DNA of 64,000 nt from a phage. Where the stretch lies: the sequence record OZ346151.1; one strand, written 5' to 3'. Positions within the stretch are counted from its first letter, which is position 1. Each line of letters begins with the position of its first letter. Of the stretch, positions 1,051-37,143 are shown one piece after another. Under the pieces are notes generated by a model. The model was not told where the DNA came from. It did no database searches and worked only from the letters and a program-made list of their open reading frames with translations. Both the position numbers and the translations under genes were made by a program.

Positions 1051-3122
1051 TGGCAACAGCTGTTTTTAAACCTTACCGTGATTACTCTACAATGGCTGCA
1101 CGGTTTCATTACCGAACAGTTCAGGATACTGCCGTTCCTGGTAGGGATTATGATCATGTTGAGGGCGATGTAACTATCCCAGTTGGGGCAACCAGTATTG
1201 AGATCCCCGTGGAAATTGTTGACAAATTACCCAACAGGTTGCCAAGAAGCTTCTTTATGGAGTTTTCATCAAAATCTCAAGGGGTGATGATTGGAACACA
1301 AAGGGCGAAATGTACAATAGTTTCAGATGAGAATCTTGACAGGATATCTTGGGATACTGTTGAGGAGAGAATGTTTCACCCAAGATATTGGGTTACAACC
1401 ACTCAGCAGACTGAAAGTACCTGTATTGTTGCAGATAACAACTGTTGTATTAACCGTTTAGTGTCAAGAACATATGGAGGTATGGCTGGGTGCATTTGGG
1501 AAACAGTTGACAAGTATGACCATTTCGGTATTGGGTTTGATGATCACTATGAGATGAGAAACACCAAGCTTTGGTTCAGAATGTCAATAACCAACGCCAG
1601 CAACTTCTCCACTCCTGAAAAGATGATTATGACTGTAGACCTTGTTGATGGCACAATCATCTATGTTCCTTTAGCTCAATATGCTGTCAGCATCTCAGAG
1701 GATAAGAATGTTGCAGAAATTCATATTGATTTTGAGGACTGCGTCGGGATGGACCAGAACAACAACATGATGGGTGTTGATCCTCGGCAGGTGAGAAGGA
1801 TTTTAATACCGCTTATGCCTAAAGACTGGGTAAGTAATAGCACAGACCCGAGAACGGAAAATGTAAAGTGTGAGTTGCGCCTAGATCTGCTTCAGCCAGA
1901 CACAGGCTGGAAAATGATGCAACTTAACAATATCCAGGTGAGAGAGCACGATGTTGGGATCTGCACCGCATATGACGATATGTGGAACGTGTCTCCTTTA
2001 AGGGTGTTGAACAATATCAAGCGTCTGGGCTATACCGGAACCATAAACCATTATGTTGGTATGAGTCATTATTATGACTACACATGGTCAGGAACCCAAT
2101 GGTCTATAAACAGAACAGGAGCGCTAAACGCTGCAGCTTATAAATGGCATGATGATTTTATGTACAATGCCAAACGACATAACTTCGACGTTATGCAATC
2201 TGTAAGTTTTGAGCTTTTCAGCGATGCCTGCCCGTTGGAATGGACCCAAAGAGACTGGAACGATAACTACGCTAAAACAGGGTATACACCTTGTAGCTAC
2301 CTCCTGTCTCCAACCATTGAAGAGGGTATGAATTTCCTTACTGCAGTATTTAAGAATTTTGCATCAGCCGCTATGAGAAACAACCTGCCAGTGATTATGC
2401 AGGTTGGTGAACCGTGGTGGTGGTACAATACCGATACTCGTAGACCTTGTATTTATGATTACCCTACAAAACAGGCGTTTTATGATGAGACAGGCGAGTA
2501 TGCATTAGATATTGGGACTATTGACGATCCTAAAACTGGCGGTGTTTACGATAAGTATGTAGCATTTTGTCGTGGTAAGCTTGGCGCTCGTATTGCGGCT
2601 ATTTCAAAGGCAATAAAGGCACACGCTGCATCAGCTCAGATGACAGCTCTGCTGTTTTTCCCAACCATTATGGAAACCGAGCTTACGCAAAAGCTTAACC
2701 TTGCTGACCAATATAAAAAGGAAGCAGGTGCTCTTGATTTCTTCTGCACCGAGTGCTACGATTGGGTGATGCAGGGAGGTATTGAAAAGGCAAAAGAGTC
2801 TGTAAACATACCTATCGTTAAGTTAGGTTGGCAACCGTCTGAAATACAATACCTTGCAGGGTTCGTTCCTAGTAAAGAGCTTGCTCCGGTATATGGCTAC
2901 GACCCAACCAGGAATTACCAAGAATTTTTATGGAGATGTATCTGCGGAAACATGGCAACCATAGAGTATAGATACCCTGAGGTAAAACAGTATGTGTGGG
3001 CATACCCGCAAGTAATGTCTGACAGCATCACTGTTACAGCCAGAGATTCTACCGTGCTTCATATGGGGCAGGTTGCTCTGAAAGGGTATGTAGAAGATGT
3101 TGTCCCTCCAGACTTCTCATAA
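1050..3122 (+). CDS. large tail structural protein (690 aa), possible baseplate or receptor-binding component
   Basis: Long uninterrupted ORF with GGAGGG RBS immediately upstream of tail-fibre genes; no catalytic motif recognised. Confidence 0.45.
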   Translation: MATAVFKPYRDYSTMAARFHYRTVQDTAVPGRDYDHVEGDVTIPVGATSIEIPVEIVDKLPNRLPRSFFMEFSSKSQGVMIGTQRAKCTIVSDENLDRISWDTVEERMFHPRYWVTTTQQTESTCIVADNNCCINRLVSRTYGGMAGCIWETVDKYDHFGIGFDDHYEMRNTKLWFRMSITNASNFSTPEKMIMTVDLVDGTIIYVPLAQYAVSISEDKNVAEIHIDFEDCVGMDQNNNMMGVDPRQVRRILIPLMPKDWVSNSTDPRTENVKCELRLDLLQPDTGWKMMQLNNIQVREHDVGICTAYDDMWNVSPLRVLNNIKRLGYTGTINHYVGMSHYYDYTWSGTQWSINRTGALNAAAYKWHDDFMYNAKRHNFDVMQSVSFELFSDACPLEWTQRDWNDNYAKTGYTPCSYLLSPTIEEGMNFLTAVFKNFASAAMRNNLPVIMQVGEPWWWYNTDTRRPCIYDYPTKQAFYDETGEYALDIGTIDDPKTGGVYDKYVAFCRGKLGARIAAISKAIKAHAASAQMTALLFFPTIMETELTQKLNLADQYKKEAGALDFFCTECYDWVMQGGIEKAKESVNIPIVKLGWQPSEIQYLAGFVPSKELAPVYGYDPTRNYQEFLWRCICGNMATIEYRYPEVKQYVWAYPQVMSDSITVTARDSTVLHMGQVALKGYVEDVVPPDFS

Positions 3123-3134
3123 TCAGGAGATAAA

Positions 3135-4175
3135 ATGTCAAAACCTAGTTTTCCATTAGAGATTTGGGCAGAGGAGGATCAGGTTCTGCCTAACACCCAC
3201 AGACAGAACAGGCTACGCCCGATCGATGATTTGTGGAGAAAAGGTTGGGATCTTGGTCAAAAGCCATCCTGTGAAGAACTTAACTATATTTTCAATATGC
3301 TCGGAACTTGGGCAAAATACATTGCTGACGAGCAGATCCCCGCTCAAGAAGGCCGTTATCTGGTACGTGATAATAACTTGAGCGATCTTTTGAACATCCC
3401 TGTTGCCCGTAGAAACCTTGGGATTATCACTAAGGAAGAGGCAGACGCCAGGTATGTAAAAGTTACAGGTGATACAATGACAGGCCCCTTGGGGTTGCAA
3501 CGTATCAACTTTAAAGCTGCCGAGACAGATAAGGCTTGGATAGAGACAACTATTGGCCCAGATAAGACAACTCTCGACTTTGGGTTAAGTGATAATACCG
3601 GGTCGTTTGATGATGGTGGTACATCTACAGTGGATGCGTTTCGTTGGAGATTCCAGCCAACTCAGCCGGATATTAATCCAGAGTTCACTTTGATGTACCT
3701 TAACGCGATCACGGCTAATCGTGCGCTGTTGAAAGTGGTAGGCAATGTTGAAGTTGTCGATAACATGAGGTGCAATAACCTTACTATCAGCAATACAGCA
3801 ACATTCACCAACTGTAATGTGGCTAGTCAGTTGACGGCTGGGTCAGTATATGTTAATGGTGGTGCAAGTTGTGACAGTATGGTTGTAAGAAGCCAGCACT
3901 GTGTTGTCGGTAACAGAAATGTGGTGCGCTCCGTGAATGGAGTGACGGCTAACGGTAACGGTGATGTAACGATCACTATCCCGCAGACAGGTGTGCAAGA
4001 CATCAGAATCGGTGCAAGACTTGTGGACGGCGTTTCTGAATCTCCAATCCGCAACGGCTACGTTGTCACAGGCTGGCATTTCGGTGACAAAAAAGAGATG
4101 CGTGGTTCAACCTACTGGGCAGGACCCTTACAAAAACTTGTAAATGGTCAATGGATCACTGTTAATTATGCATAG
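3135..4175 (+). CDS. tail fibre protein, paralogue 1 (346 aa)
   Basis: AGGAGA RBS; N-terminus MSKPSFPLEIWAEED and C-terminus QKLVNGQWITVNYA nearly identical to the 5188..6231 paralogue; Gly/Asn/Thr-rich C-terminal half typical of fibres. Confidence 0.55.
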   Translation: MSKPSFPLEIWAEEDQVLPNTHRQNRLRPIDDLWRKGWDLGQKPSCEELNYIFNMLGTWAKYIADEQIPAQEGRYLVRDNNLSDLLNIPVARRNLGIITKEEADARYVKVTGDTMTGPLGLQRINFKAAETDKAWIETTIGPDKTTLDFGLSDNTGSFDDGGTSTVDAFRWRFQPTQPDINPEFTLMYLNAITANRALLKVVGNVEVVDNMRCNNLTISNTATFTNCNVASQLTAGSVYVNGGASCDSMVVRSQHCVVGNRNVVRSVNGVTANGNGDVTITIPQTGVQDIRIGARLVDGVSESPIRNGYVVTGWHFGDKKEMRGSTYWAGPLQKLVNGQWITVNYA

Positions 4176-30632: not shown

Positions 30633-31397
30633 TTGAAATTTATCTACAAAGAACACTACCACAAAGGTGTTGTGTGGAGTCTATTTGACGGGTCTGGTGG
30701 TGCAGTCATTGACTGGGCAAAAGCTGGGTACCTGTGCCTGTGCTTTAATGCAGAAGGCGCTGATCACGGCAGTTATGCAGAGGTTATAACCGATCATCCC
30801 AACATTCACTATGTGGATTATTGGATTGACCCATGGTTCCCTCAGGAAACTTTTTGCATGTACCCAGCTCCAGACTTTATTCTTGCATTTCCTCCGTGCA
30901 CGCATTTAGCGGTATCAGGTGCTGCACATTTTAAGAAAAAGCTGGCTAAGGACCCTCTGATCCAAATTAATGCCGTAAAGGATGCTCGGGTTGCGGAAGA
31001 GCTGGGAGAGATTTACGATTGCCCGTGGCATGTAGAGAATCCTGTGGGTGTTATGTCCACACTGTGGCGCAAACCTGATTACCGTTTTCATCCTTCTGAC
31101 TATGGTGGGTATTTACCGGAGGATGATGTAAACCCTTGGTTTCCTGAATTTATAGCTCCACGTGATGCCTATCCAAAAATAACTTGCGGCTGGATAGGTA
31201 ATGGATTTATAATCCCGCCCACAAAACCTGTCCCGCAAATAGTTGACGCGGTTAGCGGGTATTCTATGCAACACGCCAAGCTGGGTGGAAAGAGTGCAAG
31301 AACGAAGATGATTCGAAGTCTCACACCACGTGGCTGGGCAAAAGCCGTATTCTTAGCAAACGAGCCTGTAGTAAGGAGCAGAATTAATGGGAAGTAA
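30633..31397 (+). CDS. DNA cytosine-5 methyltransferase-like protein (about 254 aa)
   Basis: Motif I-like SLFDGSGG, motif IV-like FPPC (catalytic Cys), motif VI-like VENPVG; likely TTG start after AGGAGA; unusually short for a C5-MTase. Confidence 0.45.
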   Translation: MKFIYKEHYHKGVVWSLFDGSGGAVIDWAKAGYLCLCFNAEGADHGSYAEVITDHPNIHYVDYWIDPWFPQETFCMYPAPDFILAFPPCTHLAVSGAAHFKKKLAKDPLIQINAVKDARVAEELGEIYDCPWHVENPVGVMSTLWRKPDYRFHPSDYGGYLPEDDVNPWFPEFIAPRDAYPKITCGWIGNGFIIPPTKPVPQIVDAVSGYSMQHAKLGGKSARTKMIRSLTPRGWAKAVFLANEPVVRSRINGK

Positions 31398-33465
31398 ATT
31401 TATGGCATCTGCATACAACCGTTTCGGTGAGCCAAACCCGAAAGCAACTAAGTATAAAAGTGGGGGGAGTGTGAAACGAGACTATCGTGATGAAAAAGAA
31501 GTTGAAACTGTAGAGACTGTTTTAGAAAATACTAAAATTGTCCCTGTCCCACAACAAAATATCGGTCTGATGGCTGCACAATATTTTGGTGTGCGATCAG
31601 CATTGTCCCAAGAAGACGGTGTGACAGTCACTGCAACATATTTCCCATATTACGACCGCTACGGAAATCTGTCTGGTTTCAAAAAGCGTGACTGGACTAT
31701 TCCTAAAGAGCAAAGGGGCCATTTCTCCGTTGTTGGCATCGTAAAGGCCAACTCCCAGATGTTTGGTCAAAAGCTGTGTGCATCTTCCAACAACCGTAAG
31801 CAGATTAATGTTTGTGAGGGAGAAGGTGATGTTATTGCAGCATGGCAGGCTGCATATCAAATACAAGTAAAAGGGATTCTCACCAACGCTAAAGCCCCGG
31901 CAAAGGTGAAACAGTGGGCTAAAGAGGTCCAGGACGGGATCGATGCAGTTATCAACGGGGGTGATTTGGCAGGAAAACCCTGCCTGCCTTTTGTTGGAAT
32001 TAACTGTGGATGTGCAAACGCAGTAGATACTTTTGCAAACAATGAGAAATTTATCCGTAGCTACGGAACAGTGGTCCTTGCAATGGACAACGATGCGGCT
32101 AACGAGGTAGAGAAGCAAAAACACGTTATCAAAGGTGTTGAAGCCACACATAATATTGCAGCATTTTTGATGGCTGACAACGTTTACCACGTGGAATATC
32201 CTGGCGAGGTAAACGACCCTGATGGTGTAAAAGATATCCGTGACATGCTGAAGGCTAAAAAGCTGGAAGATATTGTAAACATGTTCCGGCATCCTGTTAA
32301 GTATGTGCCTGATGCTGTGTCGGATTTAGAAGACTTCTCTATCGAATCTTTGCGGAAAAAGACTTCCAACGGGGTAGATATCAGCGCAGAGTTTCCAAAA
32401 CTGCAAAAAATGCTAAAAGGCTTGCACAAAGGGACACTCGTAATGCTTACAGGTCCATCAGGAGGTGGTAAAACAACTGTAGCCAAAAAACTGGAACACT
32501 GTATTGCAAGATACCTAATGGACCCGACATGTCCAAAGGCCGATGACTACGAAGAGGATGATCGTCTATGCATGATTCATCTTGAGGAGGACCCAGAGGA
32601 AGCAATTAACTCCTTGTATGCAAACCAGTTAGGGTTTGATGTTAAAGAGTTTGTTGAAGATCCTAGCCAGTTTTTAACTGATCAAGAACATGCAGAGATT
32701 CACCAATCATGGGCAAAAGCTGGAAAAATCAAAGTGTTCAAACATTTCGGGTCTATTCCAGTGGACGAGTTGATTACCAAGCTTAAGCAAATGGTTTGCC
32801 TGTACCATTGTCGCTATATTGTGCTGGATCACCTGTCTATGGTAATTTCAGGGCTTAATGTTAAAGATGAGCGAAAAGAACTGGACATGGCTATGACTCA
32901 GCTGGCTGCGTTTTGTAAGCAGTTTAACGTGTTTATCTTGGTGATCGCTCACCTCAAACGTACAGAGATTGTGCCTCCTAAGGACAAGGATGGTAACCCA
33001 TTACCTTTCTGGTATCCTGTGCGAAAAGAGAATTTGCGAGGATCGGCTGGGCTTGAACAGTTGAGTTGGGTAGTCATAGGTGTCGAGGCCGAAGAAATGG
33101 TGGATCGTTCTCGTGGGCGTGTCCGTCTGGTAGGTCTTAAAAACCGTCCAGCAAAAACTTTAGGTATTGCTGACACTTTAGTTATGGACCCACATACAGG
33201 TAAGTTCCATGATGCCAGTAATTGGTACTGGGACAAAGAAATGCAGATGTTTACAGACGGAGAAGGTGGGGAGGTTGTTTGGAGACCTCAGGCCATGTTT
33301 GAGGACCAAGAGCATGCAGTTGTAGAAACACCTATGGGCAAGGTTGTAGCCGATAAGGTTGTAACTCCTACTATTAAGCCTGTTGACACGCAGGAAGACC
33401 TTCAGTACGATGATCCATCCTCTGATCCGGTCCCCGGTTTTGAGGATGATGAAACACCTTTTTAA
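31387..33465 (+). CDS. bifunctional DNA primase-helicase (toprim plus DnaB-like SF4 helicase, T7 gp4-like)
   Basis: Toprim acidic motif VVLAMDNDAAN; Walker A LTGPSGGGKT; Walker B-like YIVLDHLSMV; 692 aa. Confidence 0.8.
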   Translation: MGSKFMASAYNRFGEPNPKATKYKSGGSVKRDYRDEKEVETVETVLENTKIVPVPQQNIGLMAAQYFGVRSALSQEDGVTVTATYFPYYDRYGNLSGFKKRDWTIPKEQRGHFSVVGIVKANSQMFGQKLCASSNNRKQINVCEGEGDVIAAWQAAYQIQVKGILTNAKAPAKVKQWAKEVQDGIDAVINGGDLAGKPCLPFVGINCGCANAVDTFANNEKFIRSYGTVVLAMDNDAANEVEKQKHVIKGVEATHNIAAFLMADNVYHVEYPGEVNDPDGVKDIRDMLKAKKLEDIVNMFRHPVKYVPDAVSDLEDFSIESLRKKTSNGVDISAEFPKLQKMLKGLHKGTLVMLTGPSGGGKTTVAKKLEHCIARYLMDPTCPKADDYEEDDRLCMIHLEEDPEEAINSLYANQLGFDVKEFVEDPSQFLTDQEHAEIHQSWAKAGKIKVFKHFGSIPVDELITKLKQMVCLYHCRYIVLDHLSMVISGLNVKDERKELDMAMTQLAAFCKQFNVFILVIAHLKRTEIVPPKDKDGNPLPFWYPVRKENLRGSAGLEQLSWVVIGVEAEEMVDRSRGRVRLVGLKNRPAKTLGIADTLVMDPHTGKFHDASNWYWDKEMQMFTDGEGGEVVWRPQAMFEDQEHAVVETPMGKVVADKVVTPTIKPVDTQEDLQYDDPSSDPVPGFEDDETPF

Positions 33466-33523: not shown

Positions 33524-35953
33524 ATGAGCATGTGGTCGTTCGACTTTGAGTCATCCGGTTTGCTGGAAGACCCAGATCTTTATTATCACTGCGGCCTGTT
33601 TAAAGAGCTGAATAAGAACCGTTTTATGCTGTTCCTTCCTCTAAATGACCGCACACACTACTCCGAGGAGGATATAGAAAAGGCTAAGAACTTCATTCTG
33701 GCAAAGAAAACTCTTTATAAAGATTTTGAAGTTCGCATAGCAGATTTTTCAGAGTTGGAAGGTTGGCTTACAGGAAATTCTGACTGGTCACCAACAGCTT
33801 TGAACTGCCATAACTGCTACAGTTATGACTTTATGCTGATGGAAAGATTATCTGGTATTCATTTTGATATGTTCCGTGATCCTAAGTGTATGGGGACTAT
33901 CAACGATCACCAGGTTAACCTGTTTGATACGTTGGCGATGAGCCGAATCTTGTGGCCTGATCGCCCTTTACCAAAAGGTTGTCCGGACTCTGTATTCAAC
34001 CCGGTTACTAAGAAAATGCAGCCTGTTGGTCCTCACGGCCTTATGGCATGGGGCTACGCCCTTGGTAACCAGAAAGTTCAAATTGATGACTGGCGCGATC
34101 TTCCGTTATGGAAGTATGTGGATCGTGTATTTGAGGACGTTATCATCCAGGAGCTGCTCTGGAAAGAGCTGGTAGCGGAATCAAAAGGTGTATTCTACGG
34201 CAAATCTGACATGCAGAACTTTATGTACGATCCTGCCAAAGAGAAGCCGAAAGGGTTCAAGAAGATCACCTGGAAGAACGCATTACGTCGAGGCATGTTG
34301 CAGCACTTCCTGATGGAGCTGCAGGCCCGTCAGGGTGTATACTTCGACATAGATGGGGCTATTGCTTTACGTGACCGCTGCGATGCGTGGATGAAAGAGA
34401 TCGCTGATCGTGTTGAACCACAACTGCCTTTAAAAGAGCTGTCAATGTCTCAGCGGCCCAAGTTCCCTGAAAAGCCGTTTAACCAAGATGGGACAATCTC
34501 TAATAATGGTTGGAAATGGTTAAAAGATAAGCTTGGCTATCCTGTGGACATGAGTGCTTTAGAGTTCAAAGCCCCACCTAAGCGAGCATTTACCTCTACA
34601 GGAGATGTCAGTAAGATGGGGATAAAATGGTGTGAAGAGATGGGCTGCAAAGACCACGATAAGATGGCTGATTTCTTGAGAGGTTATATTAAGGGCACCT
34701 CCACACCACAACCTTTACCTAAAGAGCTGATGGATCAGGCAATAAGCGATCTGCAACAGAAGCGAATGCCTGACTGCAAGATACCTATGAAAATCAGCAA
34801 TCAGGACGACATTAAGCGATACCTGATCAGTGCTGGTTGGCTTCCGACAATGTGGAGAACTAAGGATGTAACTAAGGACAGCAAGAAGAAAGCTCTACCT
34901 GATGCAGATGTTGATGCACGAGTATATGCATACATGGACGAGCTTTTAGAGTCAGAGTATTGTGACCTAATTATCAACTTCTGGAACAAAACTGATGCTA
35001 AGTTTCAGACAACAGTGCACAAGTTCCGAAGCTTTCCTAACTCCGAAAGGATTAAAAAGGAAGTGTTCGGGAAAATACGCAGAAAAGCCAGGGCACTTAT
35101 TACTTCTCCGCAACTGAAAGATACGTTTGGACACCTATGTCCGAATCTTGAAAAATTGAACGGAGAGATGGCTAAAGATATCGTCTTGTGGTTATCATTG
35201 CGAAACCGCAGATCGGTCCTTGATCCAATCAAGGAGGATAAGGTTGATACTGGTCTTCTTAATCACCCACGTTTGAAGATTGACCATAAGCTTCCTGCTA
35301 AAAGCTCTGGATTAACAAACACTTCCCGACAGAAACACAGTATTTGTGCAAACATGCCTAAACCATCTCCTAAAGTGGTTATGGGTAAAGAGATGCGTAG
35401 CTTGTGGGGTGTTCCTCCTGGATACTTTGAGATCGGTATTGACGGGTCCAACTTAGAGCAGCTTATCGGGGCTTGGGGTGCCTTTGAGTTCGACAACGGC
35501 TTGTACTATGATGTTGTAAGTAACGGGGACGCACACCAAAACAATGCTGAGGCATATACAAAAGTAGCAGGCAGAGAGGTGTCTCGTAACGACGGTAAAC
35601 CTATCACGTATGGGGTTATGTACGGGGCACAAAAAGATAAAGTTGCAGATATGCTGGATATCTCCCCAGAGTTGGGGCAAAGGGTGATCGATGCACTTTG
35701 GGATGCCAACCCAGGTCTTAAGGGGCGCAAAGAGGATCTGGAGAAATTCTGGGAAGCAACAGGTAAGAAGTTTATCTACTCTTTTGATGGTCATGCTATC
35801 TGGACCCGATCTAAACACTCTTTACTTAATGCATACCAACAAAATGGCGGCGCATCGTTGTGTGACTTAGTTGGGATACTCATGCACCATCAAATGGTGA
35901 AGCGTGGGTGGTACGATGAAGGTGTTCGTCGTATTATCTATTACCATAAATAA
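33524..35953 (+). CDS. family A DNA polymerase, 5' exon (unspliced reading frame ends at 35953)
   Basis: 3'-5' exonuclease Exo I FDFES near N-terminus; motif A EIGIDGSNLEQL and motif B RNDGKPITYGVMYGAQ (cf. T7 RDNAKTFIYGFLYGAG); frame stops 1-2 codons into the intron. Confidence 0.8.
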   Translation: MSMWSFDFESSGLLEDPDLYYHCGLFKELNKNRFMLFLPLNDRTHYSEEDIEKAKNFILAKKTLYKDFEVRIADFSELEGWLTGNSDWSPTALNCHNCYSYDFMLMERLSGIHFDMFRDPKCMGTINDHQVNLFDTLAMSRILWPDRPLPKGCPDSVFNPVTKKMQPVGPHGLMAWGYALGNQKVQIDDWRDLPLWKYVDRVFEDVIIQELLWKELVAESKGVFYGKSDMQNFMYDPAKEKPKGFKKITWKNALRRGMLQHFLMELQARQGVYFDIDGAIALRDRCDAWMKEIADRVEPQLPLKELSMSQRPKFPEKPFNQDGTISNNGWKWLKDKLGYPVDMSALEFKAPPKRAFTSTGDVSKMGIKWCEEMGCKDHDKMADFLRGYIKGTSTPQPLPKELMDQAISDLQQKRMPDCKIPMKISNQDDIKRYLISAGWLPTMWRTKDVTKDSKKKALPDADVDARVYAYMDELLESEYCDLIINFWNKTDAKFQTTVHKFRSFPNSERIKKEVFGKIRRKARALITSPQLKDTFGHLCPNLEKLNGEMAKDIVLWLSLRNRRSVLDPIKEDKVDTGLLNHPRLKIDHKLPAKSSGLTNTSRQKHSICANMPKPSPKVVMGKEMRSLWGVPPGYFEIGIDGSNLEQLIGAWGAFEFDNGLYYDVVSNGDAHQNNAEAYTKVAGREVSRNDGKPITYGVMYGAQKDKVADMLDISPELGQRVIDALWDANPGLKGRKEDLEKFWEATGKKFIYSFDGHAIWTRSKHSLLNAYQQNGGASLCDLVGILMHHQMVKRGWYDEGVRRIIYYHK

Positions 35954-36765
35954 CATTGTGGCTTCGTGCAGTGATGCACGTCGAAAACCTCTTTAATTGA
36001 CGGGAAGGCTAAGTTGACTTTTACACCTAAACATGGTAAAAGCTCAATATGCTAATCCGCAGCGAAGACTAAAGGGGTGTAGTTAAAATGGCTAGATCAG
36101 TTGAGTATCACGGATATACCGTGTTTGATGATGGAACAATACCTTTATCGAAACGTGATCATACAACAATGTTTTGTTTTGATAATGGTCGAGGTTACCT
36201 TTGCGTAACCATGTTCATCGAGGGGAAGCAGTGCACAAAAGGTGTCCACCACTTGGTTGCTGAATGCTTTGTATCAAACCCTGATCCTGAAAGGCTCACA
36301 TGGGTGAACCATAAGGACGGAAACAAATACAACAATGCATACTGGAACCTTGAATGGACCACCCCTGGTGGAAATATCAAACACGCTTATGATAATGACC
36401 TCAGAGTAAGGCCAGTCGGTGAGTATAATGCCAACGCTGTACTGACCGAGGATGAGGTAACGGAGATTTGCGAACTGTTACAAAGTGGTTTACGACAATG
36501 CGAGATTAGGGATCTTGGGTATCCTTATGAGACGGTCAGAGCCATAAAGCAAAGAAGACAGTGGAAACATATCTCTAAAAACTACACCTGGTAGTAACGT
36601 TCAGAGACTATCGAAAGCATAGCGCCAACATAAATTGGTGCGAAGAAGCGAGTAGAGTAGACCAGCAAGTGCGGTCGAAATGGGAGGTGCCTTGGTAACA
36701 AGGTAGTGAGATAGTCCGATCCATACAGGAAACTGTATGGCTGTGCACGTAATGGTGCGGGGTAG
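35948..36765 (+). mobile_element. group I self-splicing intron (boundaries approximate) carrying an HNH homing endonuclease ORF
   Basis: Core elements present: P-like AATTGACGGGAAGG (about 35997), Q AATCCGCAGC (about 36053), R GTTCAGAGACTAT (about 36597), S GAGATAGTCC (about 36708); ORF sits between Q and R; downstream exon has no start codon. Confidence 0.65.
36088..36594 (+). CDS. HNH homing endonuclease (intron-encoded)
   Basis: HNH motif HHLVAECF...VNHKDGNKYNNAYWNLEWTT typical of phage intron HNH_3 endonucleases; own RBS. Confidence 0.75.
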   Translation: MARSVEYHGYTVFDDGTIPLSKRDHTTMFCFDNGRGYLCVTMFIEGKQCTKGVHHLVAECFVSNPDPERLTWVNHKDGNKYNNAYWNLEWTTPGGNIKHAYDNDLRVRPVGEYNANAVLTEDEVTEICELLQSGLRQCEIRDLGYPYETVRAIKQRRQWKHISKNYTW

Positions 36766-37143
36766 CTTAACGACCTACCTGAACTATTGGATGAGTACCA
36801 ACTTCAAGTCCCTGACACACCGAAGTATAAGACTGTGTACACCTTCGACACAATCGAAGAACTGGAAGCATTTAAGGCAGAGCAGGAGGCCAAACTTCAT
36901 GTGTTCGACGGTCATAAGTACAAAAAGGCACGCAAGGATGAGGACGGAAACGAAGTGGTTGACAGAGACGGAAACACGGTGTACGATCCTATCCTGAACG
37001 ATGACGGAAAGCTTGAACTTATCTGGAGCCCTGTGGGTGAAATGGTGGTGCATTGCTTCTGGCAAGCTTCTAAAATGATGGGCGTCCCGTTCCAGATCAC
37101 GGGTGAATACCTGTGTGGTCGTAATTGGGGTGATTGTCACTAA
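36766..37143 (+). CDS. family A DNA polymerase, 3' exon (C-terminal about 125 aa)
   Basis: Frame open from just after the intron core with no in-frame ATG for about 100 codons; C-terminus GRNWGDCH matches Pol I/T7 Pol termini (GENWDQAH, GPNWAICH). Confidence 0.55.
   Translation, partial: LNDLPELLDEYQLQVPDTPKYKTVYTFDTIEELEAFKAEQEAKLHVFDGHKYKKARKDEDGNEVVDRDGNTVYDPILNDDGKLELIWSPVGEMVVHCFWQASKMMGVPFQITGEYLCGRNWGDCH

Follow-up and report, generated by a model that had tools for sequence, protein, structure and literature searches.

Evidence for a group I intron with an HNH endonuclease gene inside motif C of a Vequintavirus DNA polymerase gene

Introduction

Ever since SPO1, phage polymerase genes have been known to host group I introns that carry HNH genes. 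Does the DNA polymerase gene in phage sequence record OZ346151.1, whose reading frame stops early and seems to resume downstream, contain such an intron, and if so, where does it begin and end? A first-pass annotation of the 64,000-nucleotide (nt) stretch analyzed here, which we call the window, proposed from the letters alone that a group I intron with an HNH homing-endonuclease gene (HEG) splits the polymerase gene. We examined the boundaries of this element, its predicted RNA fold, its HEG and its relatives in other phages. With a probability of roughly 0.93, we conclude that a group I intron with an HNH HEG splits the polymerase gene, that splicing would restore a 925-amino acid (aa) enzyme and that the HEG would mediate homing.

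Results

The polymerase gene is interrupted within motif C

The window belongs to an rV5-like Escherichia coli phage of the genus Vequintavirus. Over 1.6 kilobases (kb) the locus is 99.4% identical to Escherichia phage AlexBoehm, and many other rV5-like Vequintavirus phages match the region at 95-98% identity. The polymerase open reading frame (ORF) at 33524..35953 ends in ...RGWYDEGVRRIIYYHK* in the ORF list: left unspliced, the exon 1 frame runs into AAA TAA in the intron and gives a truncated 809-aa product. Exon 1 can be aligned to T7 gp5 over motifs A to C and matches Pfam DNA_pol_A at 27.9 bits (E=1.5e-6), under the 34.3 cut-off. The downstream frame terminates in ...GRNWGDCH*, with its stop at 37143. 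Both the early end and the NWGDCH terminus noted by the first-pass annotation are thus seen in the ORF list. The WYDE segment after which it placed the stop is unremarkable sequence within exon 1, and it is motif C (YYH|DE) that the intron splits. The gene is divided as follows.

33524..35947, + strand: exon 1 of the family A DNA polymerase gene, 808 codons, 3' end TAT TAC CAT (Y-Y-H of motif C)
35948..36789, + strand: 842-nt predicted group I intron of subgroup IA2, first base A35948, last base G36789 (omega-G)
36790..37143, + strand: polymerase exon 2, 117 codons plus stop, from GAT GAG (D-E of motif C) to NWGDCH*

We set the boundaries from two intron-less alleles, DrSchubert and A12a. A query made of the spliced exons sorted Vequintavirus records into three allele classes, namely an unbroken 754-nt match (without intron), two pieces across 1030 nt (276-nt insert) and two pieces across 1596 nt (842-nt insert); one more record, HMD-6, carries a 328-nt insert. 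The junction in DrSchubert reads ...TATTACCAT|GACGAATAT..., and the corresponding junctions in the window read ...TATTACCAT|AAATAAC...CTATTG|GATGAGTAC.... Intron-less alleles place the insertion point exactly between CAT and GA(T/C), and because the flanking bases differ at each junction, it cannot slide. The first-pass annotation had located the first intron base correctly at 35948. Its proposed end, 36765, is the last base of the final in-frame TAG (36763-36765) before the open downstream frame and not the 3' splice site, which lies 24 nt farther on, after G36789.

Spliced in silico at these boundaries, the window encodes a 925-aa polymerase that matches the uninterrupted A12a polymerase ORF at 925/925 residues. 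At the DNA level the two differ by 38 nt, and because all 38 differences are synonymous, the compared sequences indicate that the exons are under strong purifying selection. The residues across the predicted spliced junction are IIYYHDEYQLQVPDTPK. The first-pass annotation had recommended aligning the spliced product to Pol A sequences; aligned in this way, it runs across the junction through motif C of T7 DNA polymerase (IIYYH|DEYQL in the window, MAWVH653|D654EIQV in T7). By this alignment, the intron is predicted to part the His from the catalytic Asp-Glu of polymerase motif C (YYH|DE).

Two frames could also reflect a gene split without RNA splicing, in which an HNH cassette broke the gene and the enzyme is rebuilt from two separately translated polypeptides. 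Aeh1 NrdA, split by mobE, is reportedly such a case. An ORF with a TTG start (36787..37143) does cover exon 2, many GenBank records show two separate "DNA polymerase" coding sequences, and non-spliced HNH insertions exist, such as CB7_245 (PMC7344957). However, the TTG consists of the last three intron bases, is the sole start-like codon and has no Shine-Dalgarno sequence upstream, and the segment just before it, 36760-36780, is paired in helix P9.2 of the predicted fold. A downstream frame with a functional start of its own and no likeness to polymerase C-termini had been named in advance as grounds for abandoning the intron; instead, the frame is the polymerase C-terminus. The break would, moreover, separate the His from the Asp-Glu of a catalytic motif. 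HEG-less alleles retain a 276-329-nt insert with a conserved, covarying ribozyme core that a mere break would not need, and the homologous intron of phage CB7 splices (PMC7344957). We therefore regard a split gene as very improbable.

The insert has the predicted architecture of a subgroup IA2 ribozyme

Searching the window with the Rfam covariance model Intron_gpI (RF00028), a check suggested by the first-pass annotation, returned the intron at 39.1 bits (E=1.8e-6 for the whole window, E=4.3e-8 locally). In cmscan, model positions 1-253 were aligned and P1-P9 placed, and the ORF shows up as 510 nt inserted into P6. This is the sole Rfam match at E<=0.1 on either strand of the 64-kb window. 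At gathering thresholds the whole window gives zero matches, and the intron appears with E-value reporting.

The core elements lie in the canonical order that the first-pass annotation described: P-like AAUUGACGGGAA (35995-36006), Q-like AAUCCGCAGC (36054-36063), R-like GUUCAGAGACUA (36599-36610) and S-like GAGAUAGUCC (36708-36717), with the HNH ORF between Q and R. The predicted helices are listed below.

35944..35961, + strand: P1, exon CCAU plus intron AA (35944-35949) with internal guide UUGUGG (35956-35961), 6 base pairs (bp)
35954-35957 with 36790-36793: P10, intron CAUU with exon 2 GAUG, 4 bp, by direct reading
35965..35980, + strand: P2 hairpin, CGUGCA-GUGA-UGCACG, compensatory changes at 6/6 pairs among homologues
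35988-35993 and 36682-36687, + strand: P3 5' and 3' strands, with compensatory pairs
35997-36004, + strand: P element/P4 5' strand, with a bulged A
36056-36062, + strand: Q element/P4 3' strand
36007-36009 with 36051-36053, + strand: P5
36013-36048, + strand: P5a/b
36063-36064 and 36598-36599, + strand: P6 5' and 3' strands
36606-36610, + strand: R element/P7 5' strand, GACUA; P7 has compensatory pairs
36622-36641, + strand: P7.1 hairpin
36660-36676, + strand: P7.2, preceded by an invariant GUA linker (36657-36676 with the linker), compensatory at 3/6 pairs
36688-36705, + strand: P8, with compensatory pairs
36712-36716, + strand: S element/P7 3' strand, UAGUC
36721-36740, + strand: P9, with a GAAA loop
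36746-36757, + strand: P9.1
36760-36780, + strand: P9.2
3' tail, + strand: ...GAACUAUUG, last base omega-G36789; beyond the Rfam match, as is part of the 36721..36789 segment

Ten distinct, diverged homologous cores were aligned after removal of their endogenous ORFs. From this alignment RNAalifold recovered P1, P2, P3, P4, P5, P7.2, P8, P9, P9.1 and P9.2. In place of P7 it proposed a GUCCGA/UUGGAU helix, along with two small helices; we rejected these as pseudoknot artefacts and substituted P7 and P6. In the resulting hand-specified structure, which includes the P3/P7 pseudoknot, standard pairs occupy 99.1% of 639 cells and compensatory changes occur in 27/64 pairs. When partners were slid by 1-3 columns as a control, 35-42% of cells were paired and 0-7 pairs were compensatory. 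None of 500 shuffles reached the observed number of paired cells, compensatory pairs or compensatory cells, or the observed covariation score. The number of further pair types did not stand out from that in the 500 shuffles.

Direct reading places a wobble pair, U35947.G35958, at the 5' splice site within P1, a helix that is paired in 10/10 homologues. In 15/15 intron-containing alleles, exon 2 has T at +3; this base, the partner of A8 in P10, strengthens that helix. Subgroup IA2 is defined by two additional helices, P7.1 and P7.2, which lie between P7 and the 3' strand of P3 and are joined by G-U-A (PMC3428280). Because P7.1 and P7.2 of the window intron are joined by an invariant GUA, we assign it, on its predicted fold, to this subgroup.

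Could the group I resemblance be due to chance, with the polymerase a pseudogene broken by junk sequence? An Rfam score under the gathering threshold is what such a reading would predict. The whole-window E-value, together with the strong covariation, refutes it. Furthermore, the polymerase is essential, the insert recurs in 31 phage records (some of them duplicates of one phage), and purifying selection on the exons, seen in the exclusively synonymous A12a differences, is strong. We give this reading practically no credence.

An HNH endonuclease gene occupies the P6a loop

Most of the intron consists of a cassette inserted between the Q and R elements.

36068..36595, + strand: HEG cassette, 528 nt, in the P6a loop
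36088..36594, + strand: HNH homing-endonuclease gene, I-HmuI-like, 168 aa, between Q and R

We delimited the insertion by anchoring on Q and R, since a pairwise aligner split the gap. The cassette is closed by ACUA/UAGU (36068-36071 with 36592-36595) and a perfect 9-bp stem, GGUGUAGUU/AACUACACC. In its place, the HEG-less twins HMD-6, JEP1 and JLBYU08 have a 14-nt P6a hairpin, CAUCCGAGAGGAUG. A Shine-Dalgarno-like AAGGGGUG at 36072-36079, partly within the closing stem, lies 8 nt upstream of the HEG AUG, and the UAG stop (36592-36594) falls in the 3' strand of P6a. The local fold around the start is uninformative (z-score -0.9). Promoter-like matches inside the intron are confined to the HEG ORF. 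The count of such matches in the scanned region is about that expected from shuffles, and a scan for terminators inside the intron found none.

The predicted protein matches PHROG 59 (HNH endonuclease; E=6.5e-38). Its closest relative among solved structures is I-HmuI (PDB 1U3E; E=4.4e-6), with residues 12-100 aligned to 15-100. The HEG motif VNHKDGNKYNN...GGN aligns with VDHKDGNKDNN...KIN of I-HmuI, keeping the catalytic His and the conserved Asn, and the C-terminus is helix-rich, a putative DNA-binding region. We considered whether Asn in place of Asp74 of I-HmuI marks a decaying nuclease. The family is very large, and we compared motif forms among the 150 nearest representatives; the N-H form is the commonest there, and the idea was rejected.

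The HEG product is identical to GenBank QXV75625.1 and belongs to a 155-member protein cluster. An intact ORF at 93-100% identity is found in 31 phage records. Among 60 of 65 tblastn matches listed for the HEG, none was a record of T7-like size. In phage C12 (MG065635) the HEG appears in two tblastn pieces at 97% identity, possibly a frameshifted, decaying copy.

The same intron and its variants in other phages

Escherichia phage AlexBoehm (MZ501048, BASEL collection) carries an intron identical to that of the window at 842/842 nt. Its polymerase coding sequence is annotated in GenBank as a join, and QXV75624.1 equals its product spliced at the boundaries derived here; RudolfGeigy spliced at these boundaries likewise yields GenBank QXV84155.1 exactly. 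In the BASEL collection, intron boundaries were annotated through comparative genomics (PMC8594841). The window phage is nevertheless another isolate, and the two polymerases differ at 34 residues, 33 of them in the first 192, and at 223 nt. About 160 of the nucleotide differences fall in the first 600 nt (window 33524-34100), and from -186, counted from the junction, to the stop the nucleotide sequences are identical. The polymerase gene is a mosaic, and its pattern is consistent with recombination or co-conversion around the intron.

Homologous introns at an identical codon junction are present in V5/rV5, RudolfGeigy, JLBYU08, HMD-6, JEP1, CB7, phiTE, CR9 and SSE121, as well as in a Klebsiella phage (K54_rec2), PVP-SE1, Vibrio phage K412 and uncultivated viral contigs. 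They range in length from 254 to 919 nt. The 276-nt intron of RudolfGeigy might be taken for a simple HEG deletion of the window intron. We rejected this, as it is a diverged variant, and the true HEG-less twin is the 328-nt form of HMD-6 and JEP1. The 276-nt intron (RudolfGeigy and V5/rV5, DQ832317) has near-identical ends, and its P2, P5, P6a, P7, P7.1, P8 and P9 have diverged with compensatory changes. Two ribozyme variants thus circulate at one site, apparently as recombinant mosaics.

In CB7, a Pectobacterium phage of the genus Certrevirus (HNH gene CB7_50), and its relatives, the insertion site is ...IIYYH|DEYQL..., as in the window. In CB7, phiTE, CR9, SSE121 and PVP-SE1 the first 17 nt and the internal guide sequence are also the same, and the core is homologous to and covaries with that of the window. 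Splicing of the CB7 polymerase introns was shown by reverse transcription PCR and sequencing of complementary DNA (PMC7344957). The endonuclease genes are less uniform. Unlike the window, CB7 and phiTE have a 127-aa HNH_3 ORF that extends from the P5 extension through the 3' strand of P4 and P6, placing the Q element inside endonuclease coding sequence. PVP-SE1, also unlike the window, has a LAGLIDADG_2 ORF after P7. SSE121 and CR9 have an HNH gene in P6a, the position seen in the window, whose product is 55% identical to that of the window HEG; the Klebsiella K54_rec2 intron has an HNH gene in P6a as well. With three HEGs in three positions, one ribozyme lineage looks to have been invaded independently more than once. 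Farther upstream in the polymerase gene, at a site where the window polymerase is uninterrupted, CB7 and SSE121 contain another HNH-bearing insert. The upstream insert of CB7 (record positions 2946-3616) is a group I intron by Rfam at 47 bits; that of SSE121 lies at about 870-1540.

More distant parallels exist in two other groups of phages. The insertion site in the T7-like phages PhiI and W31 corresponds to that of the window through the alignment at T7 H653|D654. Their introns were reportedly assigned to subgroup IA2 by Bonocora and Shub in 2004. They sit at site 881 (E. coli Pol I numbering), where His881 meets Asp882 in motif C, and the HNH ORF is in P6a (PMC3428280). The hosts of these introns are podoviruses of about 40 kb, a different phage family, and the likeness to the window consists of the site and the ORF position. 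SPO1, SP82 and Bastille (I-HmuI, I-HmuII, I-BasI) resemble the window in having group I introns with an HNH nicking endonuclease in a phage family A polymerase. However, these introns, like that of Pf-WMP3, lie in the fingers domain, at site 674 (E. coli numbering; PMC3428280). The SPO1, SP82 and Bastille introns thus differ from the window in insertion site; their phages have Gram-positive hosts, and we saw no intron sequence similarity.

Alleles with and without the intron differ in a short exon 2 block

Because the database holds duplicate records, the counts of records that follow are approximate and redundant. The exons find matches of >=90% identity in about 116 records. The HEG-containing intron is present in 31 records, the 276-nt form (at >=95% identity) in about 24 and the 328/329-nt form in at least 3; in an evenly spaced sample, 14/29 records were intron-less. 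HEG presence is therefore polymorphic, as both HEG-less 328-nt twins and intron-less alleles exist.

The junction CCAT|GATGA is found in 15/15 intron-containing alleles examined. With the exception of JLBYU08, all Vequintavirus intron-containing alleles begin exon 2 with GAT GAG TAC CAA (window 36790-36801). Intron-less alleles read GACGAATATCAG (GAC GAA TAT CAG) in 7/9 cases, one of them from the genus Seunavirus. The two versions differ by a block of four synonymous third-position changes, at +3, +6, +9 and +12, in the first four codons of exon 2. No further difference occurs within -57..+195 in A12a or -186..+312 in DrSchubert. The block may have arisen from P10 optimisation, from co-conversion or from resistance of the endonuclease target site. 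Enzymes of the I-HmuI type are reported to nick exon 2 just downstream of the insertion site (PMC3428280). One intron-less record, JeffSchatz (MZ501082), has the intron-type exon 2 sequence, GATGAGTACCAA; it may represent a precise loss of the intron or a homing site that is still susceptible.

A broader, tentative interpretation is that the His|Asp site is a long-lived battleground, contested in at least 4 Vequintavirinae genera and some Vibrio phages, with at least 3 independent HEG invasions, and that the intron-less block represents selected "immune" alleles. We hold this to be possible but doubtful. If true, immune alleles would account for the roughly one half of sequenced Vequintavirus phages that stay intron-free.

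Predicted splicing and homing

The fold and boundaries suggest how the element would act. The transcript would fold into the P1-P10 architecture, and exogenous guanosine would attack after U35947, the base paired with G35958 in the U.G wobble of P1. Exon 1, its 3' end now free, would then attack after G36789, with P10 (GAUG/CAUU) aligning exon 2. Ligation of TAT TAC CAT to GAT GAG would restore motif C (YYHDE) and the 925-aa polymerase. By analogy with I-HmuI, I-BasI and I-PfoP3I, the HEG product may, in a mixed infection, nick or cleave polymerase alleles that lack the intron, close to the point of insertion; recombinational repair would then transfer the intron to the recipient together with exon markers on its flanks. 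We infer splicing in the window phage from the homologous CB7 intron, the only one for which it has been demonstrated; the endonuclease activity, target specificity and homing mobility of the window HEG are likewise proposed by analogy.

Several observations weigh against this interpretation. The RNA evidence comes from the homologous CB7 intron, and the window phage was read from DNA alone. P1 and P10 are invariant among homologues, so that neither provides covariation evidence. The Pfam HNH_3 match of the HEG product reaches 17.7 bits, short of the 24.8 cut-off, and no sigma-70-like promoter was found upstream of the HEG within the intron. Finally, the 39.1 bits of the window copy are below the Rfam gathering score of 50. 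HEG-less relatives pass that threshold (HMD-6 75.6, JLBYU08 72.5, RudolfGeigy 64.7 and K412 77.3 bits against RF00028), and the core of HMD-6 differs from that of the window at 13 of 314 positions. Because this near-identical HEG-less intron passes, and because the experimentally spliced CB7 introns themselves score 46.6-47 bits, we attribute the low score of the window, by sequence comparison, to the 528-nt HEG insertion, with no sign of a defective core.

A further possibility is that the intron splices and the HEG is no longer an active homing enzyme, so that ancestry and general recombination account for the distribution. Such a HEG might be decaying, or its main role might lie in exclusion or marker competition, a role described for I-HmuI and I-HmuII. 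The commonness of the HEG-less 276-nt and 328-nt forms fits such a loss of function, as do the sub-threshold HNH_3 score and the possible frameshift in phage C12, and enzymes of the I-HmuI type cut intron-plus and intron-minus DNA alike (PMC3428280). Set against this are an ORF that is intact throughout the 31 phage records and the 155-member cluster, and a catalytic motif in the commonest form of its family. In addition, AlexBoehm and the window are identical from -186 to the end of exon 2 and differ strongly toward the 5' end of the gene, a pattern expected of recent co-conversion. An inactive HEG is thus unlikely in our judgment, though far from negligible, and we favor an intron that splices and a HEG that mediates homing.

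Existing annotation and neighboring observations

The first-pass annotation held that this copy and its insertion site still need defining. That view is outdated: because the identical AlexBoehm intron is annotated in GenBank with the same junction, the intron is already known, at the annotation level only. The central proposal of a group I intron with an HNH HEG in the Pol A gene stands, on the Rfam match, covariation, allele classes, 925/925 product, and PHROG 59 and I-HmuI matches. We found no publication on how the RNA of the Vequintavirus copy folds or splices. The only introns described in the rV5 genome paper are those of the terminase, and the polymerase given there has 775 aa (PMC3606486). 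Most GenBank/RefSeq records of rV5-like phages (FV3, FFH2, APECc02, SophiaRose) give a truncated 809-aa polymerase and a separate small coding sequence labelled "hypothetical protein" or a second "DNA polymerase"; the joined coding sequence appears only in BASEL records. Although its value as a discovery is little, the analysis has the practical value of correcting truncated 775-809-aa polymerase annotations with exact coordinates. The allele series (intron-less, 276/328-nt HEG-less, 842-nt with HEG, and three HEGs in related genera) also offers a natural system for studying intron and HEG gain, loss and target-site resistance.

No second intron and no tRNA genes were found in the 64-kb window. 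Because it has no other Rfam match at E<=0.1, terminase introns of the rV5 type would lie outside it. One neighboring gene is located upstream of the polymerase gene.

31387..33465: T7 gp4-like primase/helicase ORF

Sixteen "Campylobacter phage" records (MG0656xx) are ordinary Vequintavirus genomes that match E. coli phages here with 95-100% identity. A12a (MG065666), the one of the sixteen inspected in full, is marked UNVERIFIED and is without annotation. Judging from these sequences, the Campylobacter host label of the MG0656xx records is probably wrong.

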